From positions 2,430,001-2,462,000 of the forward strand of contig NC_017459.1 in NCBI RefSeq assembly GCF_000237865.1: 32,000 nt of DNA, read 5' to 3'. A program made the position numbers and the translations under genes. Shown in pieces: positions 15,495 through 32,000 of this stretch; the stretch's first letter is position 1, and each line of letters opens with the position of its first letter. Source of the stretch: Haloquadratum walsbyi C23 (lineage in GTDB: Archaea > Halobacteriota > Halobacteria > Halobacteriales > Haloferacaceae). The notes under the pieces were generated by a model. The model was not told the origin of the DNA. It saw only the letters and a program-made list of their open reading frames with translations, and did not search any database.

Positions 15495-15784
15495 GACGTT
15501 TAGTCACAGCAGGGATAGAGCATCGATTTCAGACGCTTCTTGAACAGTACTGTATTAAACCGAAATCTTGTGAAAGCTCATGTTCGCCAGTGTGAGGATT
15601 CATTGCTCAATTACGATGAATTGACATTTATTTTATCATGGAAGGCAAGCACTGCATGGCGCATATGGGATACAATAAGTCTATATCCACTCCAGTTAAT
15701 CGGTTCAGGCATACAACAATACACCGGACAGTATTAGCTATTTCAAGCAGATATCCTGATATCTCACCCGAACTGATTAGCAAC
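15260..15784 (+). repeat. Long direct repeat, copy 1: uppP 3' end, downstream intergenic region and the last codons of a convergent gene
   Basis: Aligns by eye with 24609-25132. I counted 7 mismatches in the 235-nt uppP-coding part. The intergenic part is more diverged but colinear to ...CTCACCCGAACTGATTAGCAAC. Confidence 0.9.
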
Positions 15785-16327
15785 ACGAACCGCAGCAGCG
15801 TGGCTATCGTCAGGATCGAAATCATAGAGCGAGAGCGCCGCCTGTGCAATCTCAAGATTTTCTTCGATCTGTTGCCAGCGGGTGATATCTCGCCAGCCAT
15901 CGTCGCCGGGTTCCAGCTCAAGAGTGAGTTCGTCGACGGTAGCAACATCGTATTGCTTTTGGAAATTATTGAGTTCAGTCTTGAGATCTCGAATTGTGTT
16001 CCGGATTTCAGTTTTTGTATGTTCACGATGAATCGCTGCGATGCGCTTCATTGCCAGCATTTGTGGAGCACGCATATACCGCGTTTCGGACTCTGTGTTG
16101 ATTACTTTGACACAACCAGTCTCCGCTAGTATAGAGAGATATTTTCGCGCAGTCGACTCGCTCACATGCGCTCGTTCAGCTATCGCACTGACTGCCTGCG
16201 GTTCAGTCGTGACATCACTGACATGGCGAACACGGTCGAACGTACTTGTATCCACCTTCCACTGTTCAATCGCAGCCTCGTTCACGTCACCCTCCCACAG
16301 TTCGGAGCAAATATCGGCTGTTGTCAT
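15764..16327 (-). CDS. Winged-helix DNA-binding protein, paralog of 17067-17585
   Basis: 187 aa. The N-terminal region WKVDTSTFDRVRHVSDVTTEPQAVSAIAERAHVSESTARKYLSILAETGCV parallels WKEQTTAFDRIQSVASAVSQPQPVSHIAAEAHVAENTARNHLTRLVELNVL. The last 6 codons (ANQFG, stop) lie inside the long direct repeat. Confidence 0.75.
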   Translation of the reverse strand: MTTADICSELWEGDVNEAAIEQWKVDTSTFDRVRHVSDVTTEPQAVSAIAERAHVSESTARKYLSILAETGCVKVINTESETRYMRAPQMLAMKRIAAIHREHTKTEIRNTIRDLKTELNNFQKQYDVATVDELTLELEPGDDGWRDITRWQQIEENLEIAQAALSLYDFDPDDSHAAAVRVANQFG

Positions 16328-16426
16328 GTATATTTGGAACTATTGCCTCGAGTAATAAAATACGCTCTCAGAAATGACTAATATTTGTCGTCCTCGTTAA
16401 ATCATACTCGCTGTTCACTACTGTAT

Positions 16427-16756
16427 CTAGTATGGAGCACCGGGTCTCGTCCCTCGAAACCCGATTGCGGCGACAAGGGTGTCAGCCGTCTCTTCGGTAG
16501 TCACTTCCTCACGATCAAGTATTCTAATTGCGCCCTTAGATATCCTCACACCGAATCCGAATTCTCGTGAGGCGATGTGTTGAACGAGATCGACACACGC
16601 CTGAATCGCGTCTTCGAACATCCGTTCGACGGCACGCTGCTCCGTTATACTCGAGAGGAATTCTTGCCGGGGCAGTGTCTCTCGTTTTGTTTTGAGTTCA
16701 TTGTAATATTGCTCAATCTGCTCGAGTGTAAGGCACATAACTCGTTCGTCAACCAC
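16427..16756 (-). CDS. HEPN-type (DUF86-like) toxin partner of an MNT; probably degenerate at the C-terminus
   Basis: The GTG start overlaps the stop of the upstream MNT remnant. The body (AVERMFEDAIQACVDLVQHIAS) is HEPN-like. The expected R-x4-H motif (RDPVLH) is present only in the +1 frame just before the stop. Confidence 0.55.
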   Translation of the reverse strand: MVDERVMCLTLEQIEQYYNELKTKRETLPRQEFLSSITEQRAVERMFEDAIQACVDLVQHIASREFGFGVRISKGAIRILDREEVTTEETADTLVAAIGFRGTRPGAPY

Positions 16757-16848
16757 GTAATCCGTCCTCTGCTATCCGATCGATGACCGTACGCTGGTGC
16801 TGGCGAATCGTCTCACGTTGATCGTCAAATTCCGCCTCAATGTTGGAC
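16749..16848 (-). pseudogene. 3' remnant of a minimal nucleotidyltransferase (MNT) gene
   Basis: Encodes ...NIEAEFDDQRETIRQHQRTVIDRIAEDGLRG, stop. This parallels the C-terminus of the intact MNT at 28660-29091 (TEAEFDEQRETLRRHQRAIIDRIAEDGLRG). Homology stops near 16848. Confidence 0.7.
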
Positions 16849-17066
16849 GGCTCCCATTGAACAGGTCACGCGAAAGCGTGGTTGAACCGAGAGGAAACAC
16901 GGAAGCTCAAACTCCCCCTCGAGGGATCCTCACGCTCTCGCGCGGGAAGGATGTCAATCGGGAGCCTGTGCTGGTTTCATCTTAGGATAACGCCTCGCCC
17001 GAAATCATTGCTTCACATATTCTATTTGGAGATAGTTTTATTATTTTTGTCTTACTACATTATAAT

Positions 17067-17585
17067 ATGACTGACTCTGCTGGTGTTGAAGCCTGGAAAG
17101 AGCAGACAACTGCGTTTGACCGCATCCAGTCAGTTGCCAGTGCTGTCTCTCAGCCACAGCCTGTCTCTCACATTGCGGCTGAGGCTCATGTTGCCGAAAA
17201 TACAGCCCGAAATCATCTTACGCGACTTGTTGAATTGAACGTGCTGTTGAGGAGCGATCAGGATGGGACAGCTCTATACGCCCCTGATCCGCTCCACACC
17301 CGAATGCAGATGCTTCGAGACTTACTCGACGAACATGATCGTGATGGGCTCATTCAATTGAAGACTTCCTTGCAATCCCAGATTGAAGATTGGCAGGAAC
17401 AGTATAATACAGAATCACCAAGCGAGCTTCGCAACCGTGCAGCAGAGACAAAGACGGCTGCTCAGACACGCGAAATGCGGAACATAGCAAGCGATTGGGA
17501 ACTCATATTGTATCGCCTTTCTATCGTTGAGGATGCAATCGAGAATTACAATACATACAGCAAGGACTTCCAACTGTCAGCCTGA
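17067..17585 (+). CDS. Winged-helix DNA-binding protein with a coiled-coil C-terminal half
   Basis: 172 aa. wHTH region as above. An AT-rich box lies about 25 nt upstream of the ATG. Followed after 2 nt by the next ORF. Confidence 0.75.
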   Translation: MTDSAGVEAWKEQTTAFDRIQSVASAVSQPQPVSHIAAEAHVAENTARNHLTRLVELNVLLRSDQDGTALYAPDPLHTRMQMLRDLLDEHDRDGLIQLKTSLQSQIEDWQEQYNTESPSELRNRAAETKTAAQTREMRNIASDWELILYRLSIVEDAIENYNTYSKDFQLSA

Positions 17586-17650
17586 CTATGGCTGGATCGT
17601 CTGATTCATTTGATTCAGCAGCAGCGTCCCATCGCGCCCTTCGCAGTATC
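17460..17650 (+). repeat. Direct repeat copy 1 (about 190 bp): 3' end of the wHTH gene plus 5' end of the 142-aa gene
   Basis: Colinear with 22677-22868, with about ten mismatches by hand alignment. Confidence 0.88.
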
Positions 17651-18016
17651 AAACAAGAACTTGACCGACATCCAATCGTTACAGGGACCCGTGGGTTTCC
17701 CGCTGGCGATTTTGTAAAAGTGGTTGCAGATCTAGCTACAGAGCGGTGGGGGATTGACACTGATAACCCAAAGCTCACTGCTCGATGGTTTGCCGGAGAG
17801 AGGCAGGATGCTAGACCAGAGTTTTCGTTTCATTATAGCGATACTGAACGAGATTTTGGGTGGCATTATCATGAGCAAGAACACGTGGAGGGCTGGGGTC
17901 ATTTCCAAGAGCGGACAGGGGAGTCTGCGTATTCGTATGAAAGCTATACGTTTCCATCACAGAATCCTGCTGGACTCGTCTGGGATGTAATGTCCAACCT
18001 CTCTTCGAGAGTTTGA
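17588..18016 (+). CDS. Hypothetical His/Trp-rich protein; operon partner of the wHTH protein
   Basis: 142 aa, 2-nt gap from the upstream gene. The C-terminal half reads FSFHYSDTERDFGWHYHEQEHVEGWGHFQER. It loosely resembles His-rich cores of DUF6516/TumE-like toxins; this is not verified. Confidence 0.6.
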   Translation: MAGSSDSFDSAAASHRALRSIKQELDRHPIVTGTRGFPAGDFVKVVADLATERWGIDTDNPKLTARWFAGERQDARPEFSFHYSDTERDFGWHYHEQEHVEGWGHFQERTGESAYSYESYTFPSQNPAGLVWDVMSNLSSRV

Positions 18017-20565: not shown

Positions 20566-21132
20566 CTACCCATTCCACGTAAGCTGGTCAACGGTTGGAA
20601 ACTCGGATTTTGCTGTCTGGGGCGGGTTGTAGTATCGGGATTTGATATCGTAGTACCCGAATTCGGGAGGGAGACGAGCACACGCCATTGCCAGATTTTC
20701 GTCCGCTGTGTGGGTGATCACACGAATTCGGGCATTCGCGTCGAACAATCGAACCGCCAACGCGACCAACGACGCATCTCGCCAGTTGTTCGTCTCTGGG
20801 TACTTGCTTTGCTGGTTGAGAAACTCATCTGCAACGAACCGCGCTTTCTCAACCGGTCCAGCACTACTATCGAACCCCTTTGTGCGATCACCTGGTAGCG
20901 GTGTGGCTACCCGAAGCCACCCCTCTTCGACAGCCGCATCGAGGTACGGGTTCGTCGGTGAGTCGGTACTCCCAGTATCCGCCAGTTCGTGGTAGACCGC
21001 TGCTGGCACCCAAATTTCTGTTCCGGCTTGCTCTACGGCACGCTTGAGCGATTGTAAGCGCGGAGTGGGGTGCTTCCCTAAATTCCGAAACATCACCGTG
21101 TCCGCAATATTCGCAGTATACATCCTCGTCAT
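20566..21132 (-). CDS. PIN-like domain protein (188 aa), candidate toxin
   Basis: The N-terminal NIADTVMF acidic motif and the later ITHTADENLA suggest a PIN-like fold. Its ATG overlaps the upstream gene's TGA (ATGA at 21129-21132). A paralogous pseudogene lies at 25112-25659. Confidence 0.65.
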   Translation of the reverse strand: MTRMYTANIADTVMFRNLGKHPTPRLQSLKRAVEQAGTEIWVPAAVYHELADTGSTDSPTNPYLDAAVEEGWLRVATPLPGDRTKGFDSSAGPVEKARFVADEFLNQQSKYPETNNWRDASLVALAVRLFDANARIRVITHTADENLAMACARLPPEFGYYDIKSRYYNPPQTAKSEFPTVDQLTWNG

Positions 21133-21761
21133 TCGGTCTGCTTGTCGGCGAATTCCTCGAGGAGATTGCCTTCGTCCTCATCGAAATCATCCGGTGTGTA
21201 CGTCGTCGGGGGTGACTCGTCGTCACCGAGATCGAGAATCGAATAGAGCGCTTCGACGAGATCATACGCAGTACCAGGCGAAAGGTCTGTGAGGCTCGCG
21301 ATCTGCCGGATTGTGACGTCCCCCTCGCTGTGTGCTTTTACGAGATCGTATGCGAGTGCGAACGTGACGATGCCGTGCTCTTCGAGAACCCGTTTGATCG
21401 GGGGGTACTCGTTCTTCTGTGCGATCACCTCAATGAGTTCGGGAGTAATCGAGACTTCTGTCTCGCGGACCGTCAATATCAGCTCAAACTCTTCAGCGGT
21501 GTATACGGCGGTCCCGGCGTCGTCACCGGCCTTGCTGATCAGACCCGCCTGCTCCAGCTTATGGAGATAGTCGTACACCGTCTTCTTCGAGACAGTTGTT
21601 GCTTCGACGAGTTCGGGGGCCGTGGCAGTCGCTGAGCGTCTAATCGATGTATAGAGGCTAGCGAGGGACGGGTTTTCGAGTAATTCTGTAAACGTGGGGA
21701 TTCCGGTGATCATCCTCGGAGTGTCCCCCGCATTTCGCACGTGTTCTGTATCGTAGCTCAT
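21129..21761 (-). CDS. Double winged-helix DNA-binding protein, candidate antitoxin/regulator
   Basis: Two wHTH-like segments: TAPELVEATTVSKKTVYDYLHKLEQAGLISK and VTIRQIASLTDLSPGTAYDLVEALYSIL. Acidic tail. ATG at 21759-21761 preferred. Confidence 0.7.
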   Translation of the reverse strand: MSYDTEHVRNAGDTPRMITGIPTFTELLENPSLASLYTSIRRSATATAPELVEATTVSKKTVYDYLHKLEQAGLISKAGDDAGTAVYTAEEFELILTVRETEVSITPELIEVIAQKNEYPPIKRVLEEHGIVTFALAYDLVKAHSEGDVTIRQIASLTDLSPGTAYDLVEALYSILDLGDDESPPTTYTPDDFDEDEGNLLEEFADKQTE

Positions 21762-22021
21762 CTTGTATAGAGTTACGAAACTAGAAATCATAAACGTTTG
21801 CCACGGAAATAGAGCACTGCAGTGTTCACAAACGAGGGCACTGCTTTTCCCGTAAACAACCCATTCAACGAAGCGAACGACGAAGCCATGAGGAATTAGT
21901 GGGCCGGTTTACGCGTTTTCATTTGCTTGTGGCCGCCAGCATCCGAACATAAGACAGCGCTGGGACGGTCGCCCAGCTGAACGAGATCACCACAAGGAGA
22001 TTTTCAGGATAGCTAGATCAG

Positions 22022-22401
22022 TGAATCATAGAGTCCGTTAATCAATGAATTATTGAAACCATTAATCAGAGAGTCAAGGAGTACTTGATTCTTGGAATGC
22101 AATAGATCTCGGCGAGCCGGGATTCAATGAATCAGTGAATCAAAGAGATAATGAATCAAGGAATCTGTTACTATAGGAAGGGCTGAATCACTGATTCAGT
22201 AATGCCAGTAGCGAAACCAGTACTCAGGAACCGGGCATAGCGAGTAGAGGATTCATTGAATCCATGAATCAAGAATTCACTGATTCCTAGCCAATCTTGT
22301 GAAATATGGGTCTGTTGGAGTAATATACCGCGGAATTCAGCGTTCGAGAGTGTCTAGACCGGCATTAGATGTCTGACGTAAATTTATGAATCAGTGAATC
22401 A
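22022..22401. repeat. Iteron array: TGAATCA/TGATTCA heptamers in an approximately 640-bp intergenic region
   Basis: Nine perfect heptamers start at 22022, 22128, 22136, 22152, 22184, 22192 (inverted), 22265, 22387 and 22395. At least six one-mismatch variants are also present. The 17-mer ATGAATCAGTGAATCAA occurs twice (22127, 22386). A near-palindrome CTGAATCACTGATTCAG lies at 22183-22199. Confidence 0.85.
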
Positions 22402-22473
22402 ATGATCGTACTATGACCGAGTCGTAGTTGGATAGCAAGATCAAGATACACCGCTCAGTGATACCTCTCGTTC

Positions 22474-22676
22474 TTACCGAAGTTCTCTCCCACCTAGAAT
22501 TGACTGGAGCTGTTCAGGTGGATCAAGTCCTCGTCGTTTCCACGTCGCCAACATCGTTGTTATTGTCTCGTGAATCTGGACCCCTTCTGCCGAACGGAGG
22601 GTCCGAAACATCTTCCGAAGGACTACTTGCTCGCGCAGAGCCCGCTCTGCGCGATTATTCGTCGAGTCAATGCCTG
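22474..22676 (-). pseudogene. C-terminal fragment of an IS66-family transposase
   Basis: GIDSTNNRAERALREQVVLRKMFRTLRSAEGVQIHETITTMLATWKRRGLDP carries the IS66 NN-x-AER motif. It is truncated at 22676/22677, where the 190-bp repeat begins. Confidence 0.7.
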
Positions 22677-22868
22677 GCTCAGACACGCGAAATGCGGAAC
22701 ATAGCAAGCGATTGGGAACTCATATTATCTCGCCTTTCTATCGTTGAGGATGCAATCGAGAATTACAATACATACAGCAAGGACTTCCAACTGTCAGCCT
22801 GACTATGGTTGTATCGTCTGATTCATTTGACTCAGCAGCAGCGTCCCATCGCGCCTTTAGCAGTTTCA
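22677..22868 (+). repeat. Direct repeat copy 2 (truncated second copy of the wHTH 3' end and the 142-aa gene 5' end)
   Basis: Encodes ...AQTREMRNIASDWELILSRLSIVEDAIENYNTYSKDFQLSA, stop, then MVVSSDSFDSAAASHRA... before diverging. Confidence 0.88.
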
Positions 22869-22880
22869 GTCATCAGTCAT

Positions 22881-23102
22881 CTATTCATATTTCCGGACGA
22901 TTCCAAGTGTGACAAACTCCTCAAGATGAGTCCATGCAGCGTCCGCCGAGCACTGTATGCAATCGGCGATTATCGCTACCGTTGCGGGGTCACGGAGTCC
23001 AAAGGCAACACTGCGGATTCGATTTCGAGTATGTGTCGTTTCTGTCCACACCTCCTGCTCTTTCGTGATTGCTCCATCGGGCGGCGCGGGATCGAATATA
23101 TA
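22881..23102 (-). pseudogene. Short wHTH-family fragment (N-terminal domain only)
   Basis: The open frame reads ...EVWTETTHTRNRIRSVAFGLRDPATVAIIADCIQCSADAAWTHLEEFVTLGIVRKYE, stop. This parallels the WK..T.FDR(I/V)..V...IA......A..HL pattern of 17067-17585 and 15764-16327. The only start is a GTG at 23049-23051. Confidence 0.4.
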
Positions 23103-30210: not shown

Positions 30211-30543
30211 TTAACATAAAGTGTTCACATAACTGTTAGGAATAATCCTAACAGAAACGCTTCGACATGAGTCCGGACCTCGTGGGATCAGGGAGAACAC
30301 TGCTGAGCAGTCACGAGCAGACTGAAACAATCCTGAGTCCCCTGTCGGTCGCGCCCTGTTAGTTCGTCTTGATCTCGGGAGTGTCGGCCTTGCGGGAGTG
30401 CGCACAGATGCGCTCAACGCGCTTCTTGAGCTTGAGCTTGAGCTCGATCTCAGGCTCTCAGCGAATGGCTTCGTCGAATCGTGATAGTCAACTATAGACC
30501 ATGTTGTCGTGGACGTGACCGTGTCGAGTGTTGGTTCGTTCAC
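30211..30543 (-). pseudogene. Small gene of unknown function, apparently frameshifted
   Basis: The GTG start overlaps the stop of the upstream 463-aa ORF. After about 30 codons the listed frame becomes Ser/Arg-rich junk. Another frame reads EPEIELKLKLKKRVERICAHSRKADTPEIKTN, stop. Confidence 0.35.
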
Positions 30544-32000
30544 TACTGCTCACCTCCATTCGGAAGCCGTGTTTGTCGCGTTGGGACTGCTATCGTCGGA
30601 TGTGTTGTCGGTGTCGTGGTGTGATAGGGATGGTCGGAATCGGCTTGGATGTCCGGGTGTTGGTACTGTTGTGCATTGCTGTTCGACAGTCGGTTCTTGT
30701 CGACGTTGATCATCGGATGCGCGGTGATGTGACTGGTATCTCCGTTAAGTTCGGTGGCAATCGAAGGTGGTGGGTGTCTGTCCCACTCAGCAAGAGTATA
30801 TTTCCTCATGTGGTCGAAGGGTATGCTTCTCGATCCGGTGGGTGTGGTCGGCTGTCGATATATCACTAGCGGCGGTGCGATCTGATTGCTGTTCGGCGAA
30901 AGCCAGGTCGTTACTGGTGGTGTCGGACTTGTTGTGGTCCACCGGCGGTGACCCTCTTGCTGGACTGCAGTTACGCGGTCAAGTTCGCGGACATCGCCAA
31001 TCCGTCGGTCATAGCTACTTGCGGAGATATCCGCCTGCTCGATTAGCTCCGAGCGACCAACTGGACCGTCGGCTCGCAATAGGGTGGCGTACAGTTTGGT
31101 GGCTGTCGGTGTGAGATCGGACCGGAAGCGCTCTGGTGGGAGTGTAGCCGCTGCGCGTTCGACGTCCGCAGGCGTTGAGGTTGGGGAGTGTGACTCGGAC
31201 TCGTTCAGCGCTCGCAGCAGGCTCTCTACGACATCGTATGGACACGCTCTGTGTGTGCCCGACAGACCGAACGAGCGCAGACAGAGCCGCACCAGTCGCT
31301 GTTGCTCGCGAGGTGTCCACCGAATGTCGTGGGTCATTGCAATCTCGGTGATCACCTGCCGGATGGCGGGGTACGTCGTCCCGTCGACGACAGGGATCTC
31401 AAGCGGTGGTACTTGCTCAATCCCCTCGGCGATTGATTGTCGGACGGTGGCGAGTTCACGTGCGAGCGTCGTGGTAATTTCGTCGTGAAGCGCGGTGATG
31501 GTCGGGCCCGAAAGTACCCATGACATGGTGAGATTCATCGTCGCGTCGTCATCAGTCTCATAGGGAAGTCGTCGGCACAACTTTGCGGGTCGTTCCTCGA
31601 ACAACATGCGATAGCCTGAGTGAATCCCGCAGATGGACTGTTTGGGAGCTGTCTTACTGAGAAACGCACAGAGATTCTGTCGTTGGGTGGTGTTACGTGC
31701 GAGTGCGTCGGTATCGGGAATTCTAATAGTGGTTGTCAGGTCGATACCAACCGCGTGATACAACTGTGTCGCCGAGGCAATCAGTCCATGAAGATCTTTG
31801 AACAGGTCGCTTCGGGCGGCTGTATCACCGCTGTGCGTGAGTTCGGCAACTCGTGTAAGCAGTCGATCTCGAACCGTTGTTATCCGCTCGCGCCATGCTC
31901 CGTAGGTGGTTTCGGCGTCGCTGTACCAGCCCACCTGATGACCACGGCGGAGAAGTCGGTCGACTGGATACGCCTGGGTTCCGTCATCGATTGCTTCGAA
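30543..32000 (-). CDS. Large hypothetical protein with an internal wHTH-like segment; the 5' end lies beyond the window
   Basis: The frame is open from the window edge (FEAIDDGTQAYPVDRLLRRGHQVGWYSD...). KLYATLLRADGPVGRSELIEQADISASSYDRRIGDVREL looks like a wHTH. The C-terminal tail is a Thr/Pro/His-rich low-complexity region. Confidence 0.6.
   Translation of the reverse strand, partial: FEAIDDGTQAYPVDRLLRRGHQVGWYSDAETTYGAWRERITTVRDRLLTRVAELTHSGDTAARSDLFKDLHGLIASATQLYHAVGIDLTTTIRIPDTDALARNTTQRQNLCAFLSKTAPKQSICGIHSGYRMLFEERPAKLCRRLPYETDDDATMNLTMSWVLSGPTITALHDEITTTLARELATVRQSIAEGIEQVPPLEIPVVDGTTYPAIRQVITEIAMTHDIRWTPREQQRLVRLCLRSFGLSGTHRACPYDVVESLLRALNESESHSPTSTPADVERAAATLPPERFRSDLTPTATKLYATLLRADGPVGRSELIEQADISASSYDRRIGDVRELDRVTAVQQEGHRRWTTTSPTPPVTTWLSPNSNQIAPPLVIYRQPTTPTGSRSIPFDHMRKYTLAEWDRHPPPSIATELNGDTSHITAHPMINVDKNRLSNSNAQQYQHPDIQADSDHPYHTTTPTTHPTIAVPTRQTRLPNGGEQ

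Follow-up and report, generated by a model that had tools for sequence, protein, structure and literature searches.

What function can be attributed to a dense array of short repeats that lies in a gene-free stretch of haloarchaeal DNA? The question was raised by a 32,000-nucleotide region of Haloquadratum walsbyi C23 (contig NC_017459.1, positions 2,430,001 to 2,462,000; this whole stretch is hereafter called the window, and positions are counted from its first letter). An original prediction made from the letters alone had described repeated copies of the heptamer TGAATCA/TGATTCA at 22022-22401, and had proposed either a replication origin or a partition site, with neighboring winged helix-turn-helix (wHTH) proteins as candidate binders. 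Based on sequence comparisons and on analogy with characterized systems, we consider it probable that the array is the centromere and operator of a haloarchaeal plasmid partition cassette resembling those of type Ib (a small Walker-type ParA and a small adaptor, with repeats arrayed upstream of parA), probably coated by the adaptor DUF8160, and recently orphaned at this locus.

Phased repeats upstream of parA-DUF8160 cassettes

The exact heptamer occurred 19 times across the window, compared to 8.6 ± 2.7 times in dinucleotide shuffles, and nine of these copies were concentrated in 22022-22401, together with eight copies carrying one mismatch (positions in Table 1). At the rate found outside the array, 0.12 heptamers would be expected per 387 bp (Poisson P = 1.5e-14), and 20,000 shuffles of the segment itself yielded a mean of 0.07 heptamers and a maximum of 3. 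These counts bore out the density originally claimed for this stretch, and the organization that had been described was also recovered, with the tandem dimer ATGAATCAGTGAATCAA present at 22127-22143 and again at 22386-22402, and an inverted pair at 22184-22198. The 17 copies, embedded in DNA with a guanine plus cytosine (GC) content of 40%, were distributed in four clusters, each of them following a single 8-bp phase (start position modulo 8 of 6, 0, 1 and 3, respectively), and 13 of the 16 successive spacings were multiples of 8. The true unit of the array is the palindromic heptamer TGA-N-TCA plus one base; since the heptamer is palindromic, the distinction between direct and inverted copies is set by the center base alone. 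Two further copies that had been pointed out at 17602 and 17611, within a 142-aa gene, do exist, but they are not members of the array, because they lie 9 bp apart in coding sequence (encoding SDSFDS) that is duplicated at 22819; the TGATTCA at this last position is present because 22659-22888 is a partial duplicate of 17442-17671.

When the segment 21792-22430 was compared with plasmids by sensitive blastn, 22019-22423 matched at 71-73% identity regions located directly upstream of a ParA gene, in plasmids including Natrinema pellirubrum pNATPE01, a plasmid of Halobacterium sp. DL1, and Halolamina pCBA1230-02. The last ~54 bp of the segment matched a dozen further plasmids at 85-90% identity, often at coordinates 150-350, with parA as gene 1. 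In more than 50 plasmids and contigs of haloarchaea, homologous stretches of ~420 bp with a clustered, 8-bp-phased TGAnTCA array directly preceded the gene for a 303-aa ParA, and the intact relatives carried 4-14 exact TGA-N-TCA heptamers (~12-22 allowing at most one mismatch) within ~420 bp, arranged in four or five clusters. The partition-site alternative of the original prediction was therefore strongly supported by homology to a conserved region upstream of parA-DUF8160 cassettes of haloarchaeal plasmids.

The association between array and cassette was strict. Seven plasmid loci shared a common layout, in which a dimer of the repeat was always placed at -26/-18 from the parA ATG, directly after gaTTTA. 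A search with the corresponding promoter-dimer pattern TTTATGANTCANTGANTCAATGATCG retrieved 28 loci, exclusively from haloarchaea (one genome per species was scanned); the pattern was absent from viral contigs, and a phage collection gave no match. In all 27 evaluable loci, an intact open reading frame (ORF) for the 303-aa ParA started 4 nt past the pattern, and a gene for a ~145-aa protein of the DUF8160 family (Pfam PF26492) was the next one after parA in 32 of 34 loci, the remaining two being cut by contig ends. Since the dimer directly followed a conserved TTTA at -26/-18 in all loci examined, the repeats overlap the operon promoter, as judged from position. A second TGAnTCA dimer was found over the DUF8160 stop codon (+1364/+1372 from the parA ATG) in about two-thirds of the 35 loci listed, so that the operon appears to be bracketed by predicted binding sites.

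Across 32 loci, 320 copies of TGAnTCA were counted, the center base being A (176 copies), G (71), T (58) or C (15). Among pairwise distances of up to 64 bp, 335 of 351 were multiples of 8. The heptamers are each followed by n-(T)GA, so that the units are TGAnTCAn. The motif reached a density of 21 copies per kb within the 450 bp preceding parA (-450 to 0), compared to 0.45 per kb in flanking DNA. The alignment of these loci showed conservation of the TGA and TCA positions, of a GTCTGACGT box and of the TTTA, whereas the spacers and the DNA between clusters varied.

The associated ParA proteins (303 aa, with a KGGTGKT motif and Pfam matches to AAA_31/CbiA/MipZ) have only ~17 aa before the P-loop region, and belong to the small deviant-Walker-A type without an N-terminal helix-turn-helix (HTH) domain; they are not encoded in the window. 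Members of this clade were present on 23 haloarchaeal plasmids of the PLSDB database, from many genera and with 74-100% protein identity, and were often encoded by gene 1. A more divergent cassette (L046, partner protein ~38% identical) showed the same motif and the same GTCTGACGT box and TTTA upstream, as well as seven consecutive 8-bp units past the partner's stop codon, at 1494-1550. Regarding covariation between adaptor and motif, no specificity switch was detected within DUF8160, the single divergent cassette recovered having kept the motif. The ParA of pNRC100, by comparison, is only 32% identical, has an unrelated partner, and is preceded by a different repeat (CTATTC/GAATAGC): in the 300 bp upstream of that parA, located at 667, about eight copies of CTATTC are followed by about five copies of GAATAGC in opposite orientation.

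Disruption of parA and an intact counterpart of the locus

The description of the repeat region as gene-free held in part. The ORF listed at 22428-22802 is indeed not a gene, but a chimera of an insertion sequence (IS) fragment and a duplicated gene end; on the other hand, the first 11 nt of a destroyed parA are retained immediately downstream of the array (Table 1). From this point on, the sequence was 95% identical to the end of an IS66-family element from a Halorubrum ezzemoulense megaplasmid, starting at the IS end GTAGTTGGATAGC. The IS is itself truncated, and joins the duplicate of 17442-17671 at ~22676-22686 through the shared sequence GCTCAGACAC, a microhomology. An alternative assignment of the MTES* reading frame at 22414 to the start of a DUF7342 pseudogene was rejected, as it corresponds to the parA start running into the IS end. 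Likewise, the 142-aa gene (17588-18016) was considered as a ParA partner on account of its matching length, and was discarded for lack of similarity. A 14-bp direct repeat, GGATAGC[T/A]AGATCA, flanks the array on both sides, and was taken as a coincidence, its right copy being inside the IS terminus.

An intact counterpart of the locus was found in a 35-kb metagenome scaffold (L043), which was 96.1% identical to 20847-22423 and whose identity with the window stopped exactly at 22423. In this scaffold, a PIN_halo gene, a gene for a protein with two wHTH domains, the intergenic region with the array, an intact 303-aa ParA gene and a 145-aa DUF8160 gene follow one another, an order that represents the intact ancestral state of the locus. 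It is this identity of 96% up to the break that links the orphan array to parA.

Indels aside, the segment 22019-22423 was ~99% identical to its counterpart in L043. The differences comprised one motif base (TGAATTA for TGAATCA at 22046, where the heptamer is perfect both in L043 and in the related locus L041), one base upstream at 22006, and two spacer bases. Moreover, the window lacks 32 bp held by L043 at ~22127, within cluster II, corresponding to four 8-bp units (GAATCAGTGAATCAAA twice); array length changes in whole units, as expected from slippage. Three differences from L041 were found inside the array.

Altogether, the comparison shows that an IS66-family element was inserted 11 nt into parA, that further rearrangement removed parA and the partner gene, and that the array was recently orphaned; the loss of parA is recent because the divergence from L043 is only ~1%. 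The same junction was present in two further metagenome contigs (99.1% and 97.4% identity), and an intact partner gene was found in a sample of the same accession series as these junction-bearing contigs.

Table 1. Positions of the repeat array and of adjacent features within the window.
Feature	Start	End	Strand	Details
Two-wHTH protein gene (21129-21791) and PIN_halo protein gene (20566-21132)	20566	21791	-	Pfam HTH matches; L043 homologue PF26425 PIN_halo
Segment homologous to parA-upstream regions (TGAnTCA array, promoter, first 11 nt of parA)	22019	22423	+	blastn against plasmids; L043
Cluster I	22022	22092	.	Phase 6; perfect copy 22022; one mismatch 22038, 22046, 22062, 22086; TGA/TCA columns conserved in 32 loci
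Cluster II	22120	22198	.	Phase 0; one mismatch 22120; perfect copies 22128, 22136, 22152, 22184, 22192 (minus strand); holds tandem dimer and inverted pair
Cluster III	22249	22287	.	Phase 1; one mismatch 22249, 22257, 22281; perfect copy 22265; columns conserved across loci
GTCTGACGT box (22371-22379) followed by TATA-like AAATTTA (22380-22386)	22371	22386	+	Presumed parA promoter; near-invariant columns in 32-locus alignment
Promoter-proximal dimer TGAATCAgTGAATCA (fourth cluster), presumed operator	22387	22401	+	Perfect copies 22387, 22395; -26/-18 from parA ATG
parA remnant, ATG plus 8 nt (ATGACCGAGTC)	22413	22423	+	Agrees with the initial codons (MTE[ST]) of the 303-aa ParA across all relatives
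Terminal 263 bp of IS66-family element, beginning GTAGTTGGATAGC, including 3' end of transposase gene	22424	22686	-	95% identity
Partial duplicate of 17442-17671 (3' end of DUF7342 gene and 5' end of 142-aa gene)	22659	22888	+	

Partner protein, proposed mechanism and alternative explanations

Position, linkage and analogy point to DUF8160 as the likely adaptor that binds the array, and they likewise suggest centromere activity and autorepression. The protein shows a conserved N-terminal peptide, MDERFEDPSEE, with an invariant Arg, followed by a variable acidic linker and by a near-invariant C-terminal domain of ~75 aa, in which N73, I74, W78, Y84, P87, K113 and H116 are invariant throughout the family; such near-invariance would fit the constancy of the motif across genera. 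The C-terminal domain was predicted by AlphaFold, with low confidence, as strand-helix-helix-helix, an arrangement that would be compatible with the fold of ribbon-helix-helix (RHH) proteins. The family is small, comprising just 24 clusters (50% identity) in a set of 1.84 billion representative proteins, and was haloarchaeal in every locus examined. One of the DUF8160 matches was inside a 5868-aa protein.

According to the mechanism proposed here, dimers of the ~145-aa DUF8160 protein would each bind one 8-bp unit and coat the clusters cooperatively, with the distal clusters making up the partition complex, i.e. the centromere. Nucleoid-bound ParA would position this complex, which in turn would stimulate ParA through the N-terminal MDERF peptide of the partner. 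The dimer located between the TATA-like box and the start codon would repress the operon: the box and TATA-like element are presumed to be the parA promoter because they precede the ATG by 27-33 nt, the spacing seen in leaderless genes of haloarchaea, and general haloarchaeal promoter architecture suggests that the dimer is placed to block initiation of a probably leaderless transcript.

The 8-bp register matches the geometry of arrays bound by RHH proteins. The closest geometric analogue of the TGAnTCAn units is the met-box array of MetJ, for which Somers and Phillips reportedly described in 1992 palindromic boxes of 8 bp in tandem (AGACGTCT), with one RHH dimer on each and cooperative contacts at the 8-bp spacing. 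MetJ, however, is a metabolic repressor acting on 2-5 boxes, without a role in segregation. In the delta/omega system of pSM19035, the centromere-operators consist of contiguous short repeats, direct and inverted, that lie upstream of the partition genes and are each occupied by an RHH dimer, with a 7-bp register and the non-palindromic heptad WATCACW. This bacterial arrangement differs from the 8-bp palindromic unit described here. Delta/omega is a ParABS plasmid partition system in which, in the sections available of a published account, the arrangement of parS is essential for function (PMC9499535).

On the functional side, the array can be compared to parFGH of plasmid TP228 in Escherichia coli, composed of the ATPase ParF, the RHH protein ParG, the centromere parH and the operator O_F, in which ParG binds ACTC boxes with 4-bp spacers, 12 boxes forming parH and eight forming O_F (PMC3130281). 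In that system one adaptor dimer occupies each box, and the flexible N-terminal tail of the adaptor bears an arginine-finger-like motif (PMC3130281). Both arrays have an 8-bp register, mixed orientation and distal repeats plus a promoter-proximal set; in TP228, 20 boxes lie upstream of the small ParA-type gene and are divided between a distal centromere and a promoter-proximal operator. On the partner side, the likeness extends to the conserved N-terminal MDERF peptide and acidic tail of DUF8160. In contrast to TP228, the box is here a palindromic TGAnTCA instead of ACTC, the array is broken up into four or five clusters over ~400 bp, the operon has an archaeal TATA-type promoter, an additional site lies over the 3' end of the operon, and no match of DUF8160 to ParG was detected in either sequence or fold.

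The experimental demonstration of active DNA segregation in haloarchaea is very recent and concerns HpaAB on pHV3 of Haloferax volcanii, and the available sections of the preprint report that the partner forms foci positioned by HpaA and is needed for pHV3 maintenance (bioRxiv 10.1101/2025.11.19.689047). In the same sections, HpaB is put forward as an RHH protein that binds the centromere and interacts with ParA through an N-terminal helix, and mutation of its Tyr74 abolishes the foci (bioRxiv 10.1101/2025.11.19.689047). So far as these sections describe it, HpaAB resembles the cassette studied here in being a haloarchaeal two-gene operon, with ParA followed by an acidic partner of ~140-150 aa. 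HpaA, however, is 28% identical to the present ParA clade and 50% to the pNRC100 type, to whose family it belongs, the pHV3 upstream region contains just a short AGATTATT pair instead of a TGAnTCA array, and no centromere sequence is given in the sections of the preprint covered. The two systems are analogous, possibly distantly related, but not of the same family. Another archaeal plasmid partition cassette with a site upstream of its genes is AspA-ParB-ParA of Sulfolobus pNOB8, as summarized in part of the same source (bioRxiv 10.1101/2025.11.19.689047); unlike the present array, it is described there as a three-protein system with a single 23-bp palindrome and a spreading wHTH binder.

A number of results weigh against the reading of the array as a DUF8160-bound centromere and operator, or against its activity at this locus. 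The AlphaFold model of DUF8160 reached a mean confidence (predicted local distance difference test) of 48.6 for the full-length protein and 58.5 for the C-terminal domain, leaving the fold unconfirmed, and searches for its fold with Foldseek and against PDB sequences, PDB profiles and Pfam returned nothing. A profile comparison by hhalign between DUF8160 and HpaB together with the pNRC100 partner gave a probability of 23% (E = 8.6e-4), and the corresponding comparison of HpaB and DUF8160 as single sequences was negative. The profile alignment did pair the invariant Tyr84 of DUF8160 with Tyr74 of HpaB, a match that is to be regarded as a hint only. In addition, no ParA or DUF8160 coding sequence was found by tblastn of the whole window, and the element may therefore be inert here. 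Finally, because the array is only ~1% diverged from L043, its good preservation is uninformative about selection after the loss of the genes, the differences from L041 and L043 being too few for a test of selection on the orphan array.

Among the alternatives, an array that serves purely as an operator, controlling the parA operon and possibly the divergent HTH-PIN module as well, with the real centromere located elsewhere, was regarded as unlikely. The only copies in an obvious regulatory place are those of the dimer between the TATA-like box and the ATG, and the true centromere could be formed by the downstream sites, where the partner gene ends; nevertheless, four or five clusters spread over ~400 bp far exceed the needs of a repressor, and the array is the only strongly enriched site of the cassette in most loci. 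In TP228, distal and operator boxes both act as centromeres (PMC3130281).

Much less probable still is the origin hypothesis, whether an iteron-type or another replication origin bound by an initiator (RepH or Orc1/Cdc6), even though dense short repeats, a 40% GC stretch and a replicon of the RepH type would be in keeping with it, and parA cassettes often lie close to plasmid origins and at coordinate 1 of the plasmid entries. The linkage of the array is to parA and not to a rep gene: it is placed directly upstream of parA in 27 of 27 loci, while in the flanks retrieved for 34 related loci orc1/cdc6 was found only 6 times and repH never; in the window itself, repH is ~8 kb away and its upstream side is beyond the window. 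Where an iteron-type origin has 17-22-bp direct repeats beside an initiator gene, plus an AT-rich unwinding region next to them, the 8-bp palindromic unit of this array has parA as its conserved neighbor. The repeats are also unlike the origin recognition box (ORB) elements of Orc1/Cdc6 origins, which surround a DUE beside an orc1/cdc6 gene, as judged from the ORB consensus features, and the window contains no orc1/cdc6 gene.

A similarly low probability was assigned to the proposal that the repeats are sites for neighboring winged-helix proteins, either the two-wHTH protein or the DUF7342 proteins. An HTH gene is divergently adjacent to the array both in the window and in L043, and DUF7342 fragments lie just downstream. 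Yet homologues of the HTH protein (28-35% identity) were found in only 3 of ~35 related loci, none of them adjoining the array; elsewhere, the HTH-PIN module lies kilobases from parA or beside unrelated genes, and the HTH gene has a conserved palindrome of its own, CACTGCAGTG, at 21815-21824. The DUF7342 pieces, in turn, arrived by rearrangement after the IS break.

A different matter is whether the array has any activity at all in its present host, and here the balance is even between some activity and an inert relic. The parA and partner genes are gone, the surrounding 10 kb are pieced together from fragments of IS elements, partial duplicates and broken ORFs, and at only ~1% divergence from the intact locus the array has not had time to decay. 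On the other side, the same junction recurs in two more metagenome assemblies (97-99% identity), and the occurrence of an intact partner gene in a sample of the same series makes supply in trans possible. This issue bears on present activity and not on identity, and is compatible with the array being an orphaned centromere and operator. The orphan array could act only if a co-resident replicon supplied both ParA and DUF8160. That it still works as a centromere, with a RepH-type replicon segregated by, or incompatible with, a co-resident plasmid encoding these proteins, is doubtful; if it were so, service in trans would amount to centromere hitch-hiking in archaea. Regardless of service in trans, the phased TGAnTCA units (8-bp register) would give a widespread partition cassette of haloarchaea its first centromere motif defined by sequence, and the DUF8160 adaptor would constitute a new centromere-binding family. 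A literature search found no paper on the TGAnTCA motif or on the centromere of a haloarchaeal ParA cassette.

Phased short repeats acting as centromere and operator upstream of a small parA are of a known kind, of which this array would be a further case. A conserved candidate site is defined for the cassette of 303-aa ParA and DUF8160, which is distinct from HpaAB and is distributed over many genera of haloarchaea with protein identities of 88-100%; the site consists of four or five phased TGA-N-TCA clusters, the dimer at the promoter and a further site where the operon ends (3' end). For annotation purposes, such arrays can be recognized even once the genes are lost, and the locus shows that plasmid stability modules can be inactivated by elements of the IS66 type. 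The instance in the window is a relic of limited biological consequence, unless served in trans.

Neighboring genes and context of the window

The HTH-PIN module on the left of the array is the ancestral left neighbor of the cassette, and is not predicted to encode its binder. The module (HTH plus PIN_halo, PF26425) was present at 87-91% nucleotide identity on plasmids of many haloarchaeal genera, away from parA (including L001 and the pNRC100 locus, L002), and looks like a mobile stability module of toxin-antitoxin type. In L041, the HTH gene has a 1-bp deletion at the position corresponding to 21554 of the window. Just upstream of the divergent two-wHTH gene, 21812-21844 contains the palindrome GAGCACTGCAGTGTTC and, nearby, GGGCACTGC, both conserved with small changes upstream of two-wHTH homologues in pCBA1230-02 and pNRC100; this palindrome is probably the operator of the two-wHTH gene itself.

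At the right end, the C-terminal part of a RepH homologue (30543-32000, minus strand), 70% identical to RepH of the Halorubrum ezzemoulense megaplasmid, runs off the window, which is therefore assigned to a RepH-type haloarchaeal replicon whose origin probably lies beyond 32000. The right half of the window contains HepT/MNT and PIN modules, DUF7342 wHTH genes and many broken ORFs, and glycosyltransferase genes and IS elements are present in the left half. Within 15764-17585, a HepT-like ORF (16427-16756) has on either side one of two divergent wHTH genes of the DUF7342 family, 30% identical to each other, and a third DUF7342 fragment occupies 22896-23054 (minus strand). No matches were obtained when the window was scanned for Rfam families and for tRNAs. 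The segment 18000-20560, with a higher GC content of ~57%, showed only short overlapping ORFs without family matches, probably representing decayed genes, and GC values along the window ranged from 37 to 58%, unusually low for a haloarchaeon.

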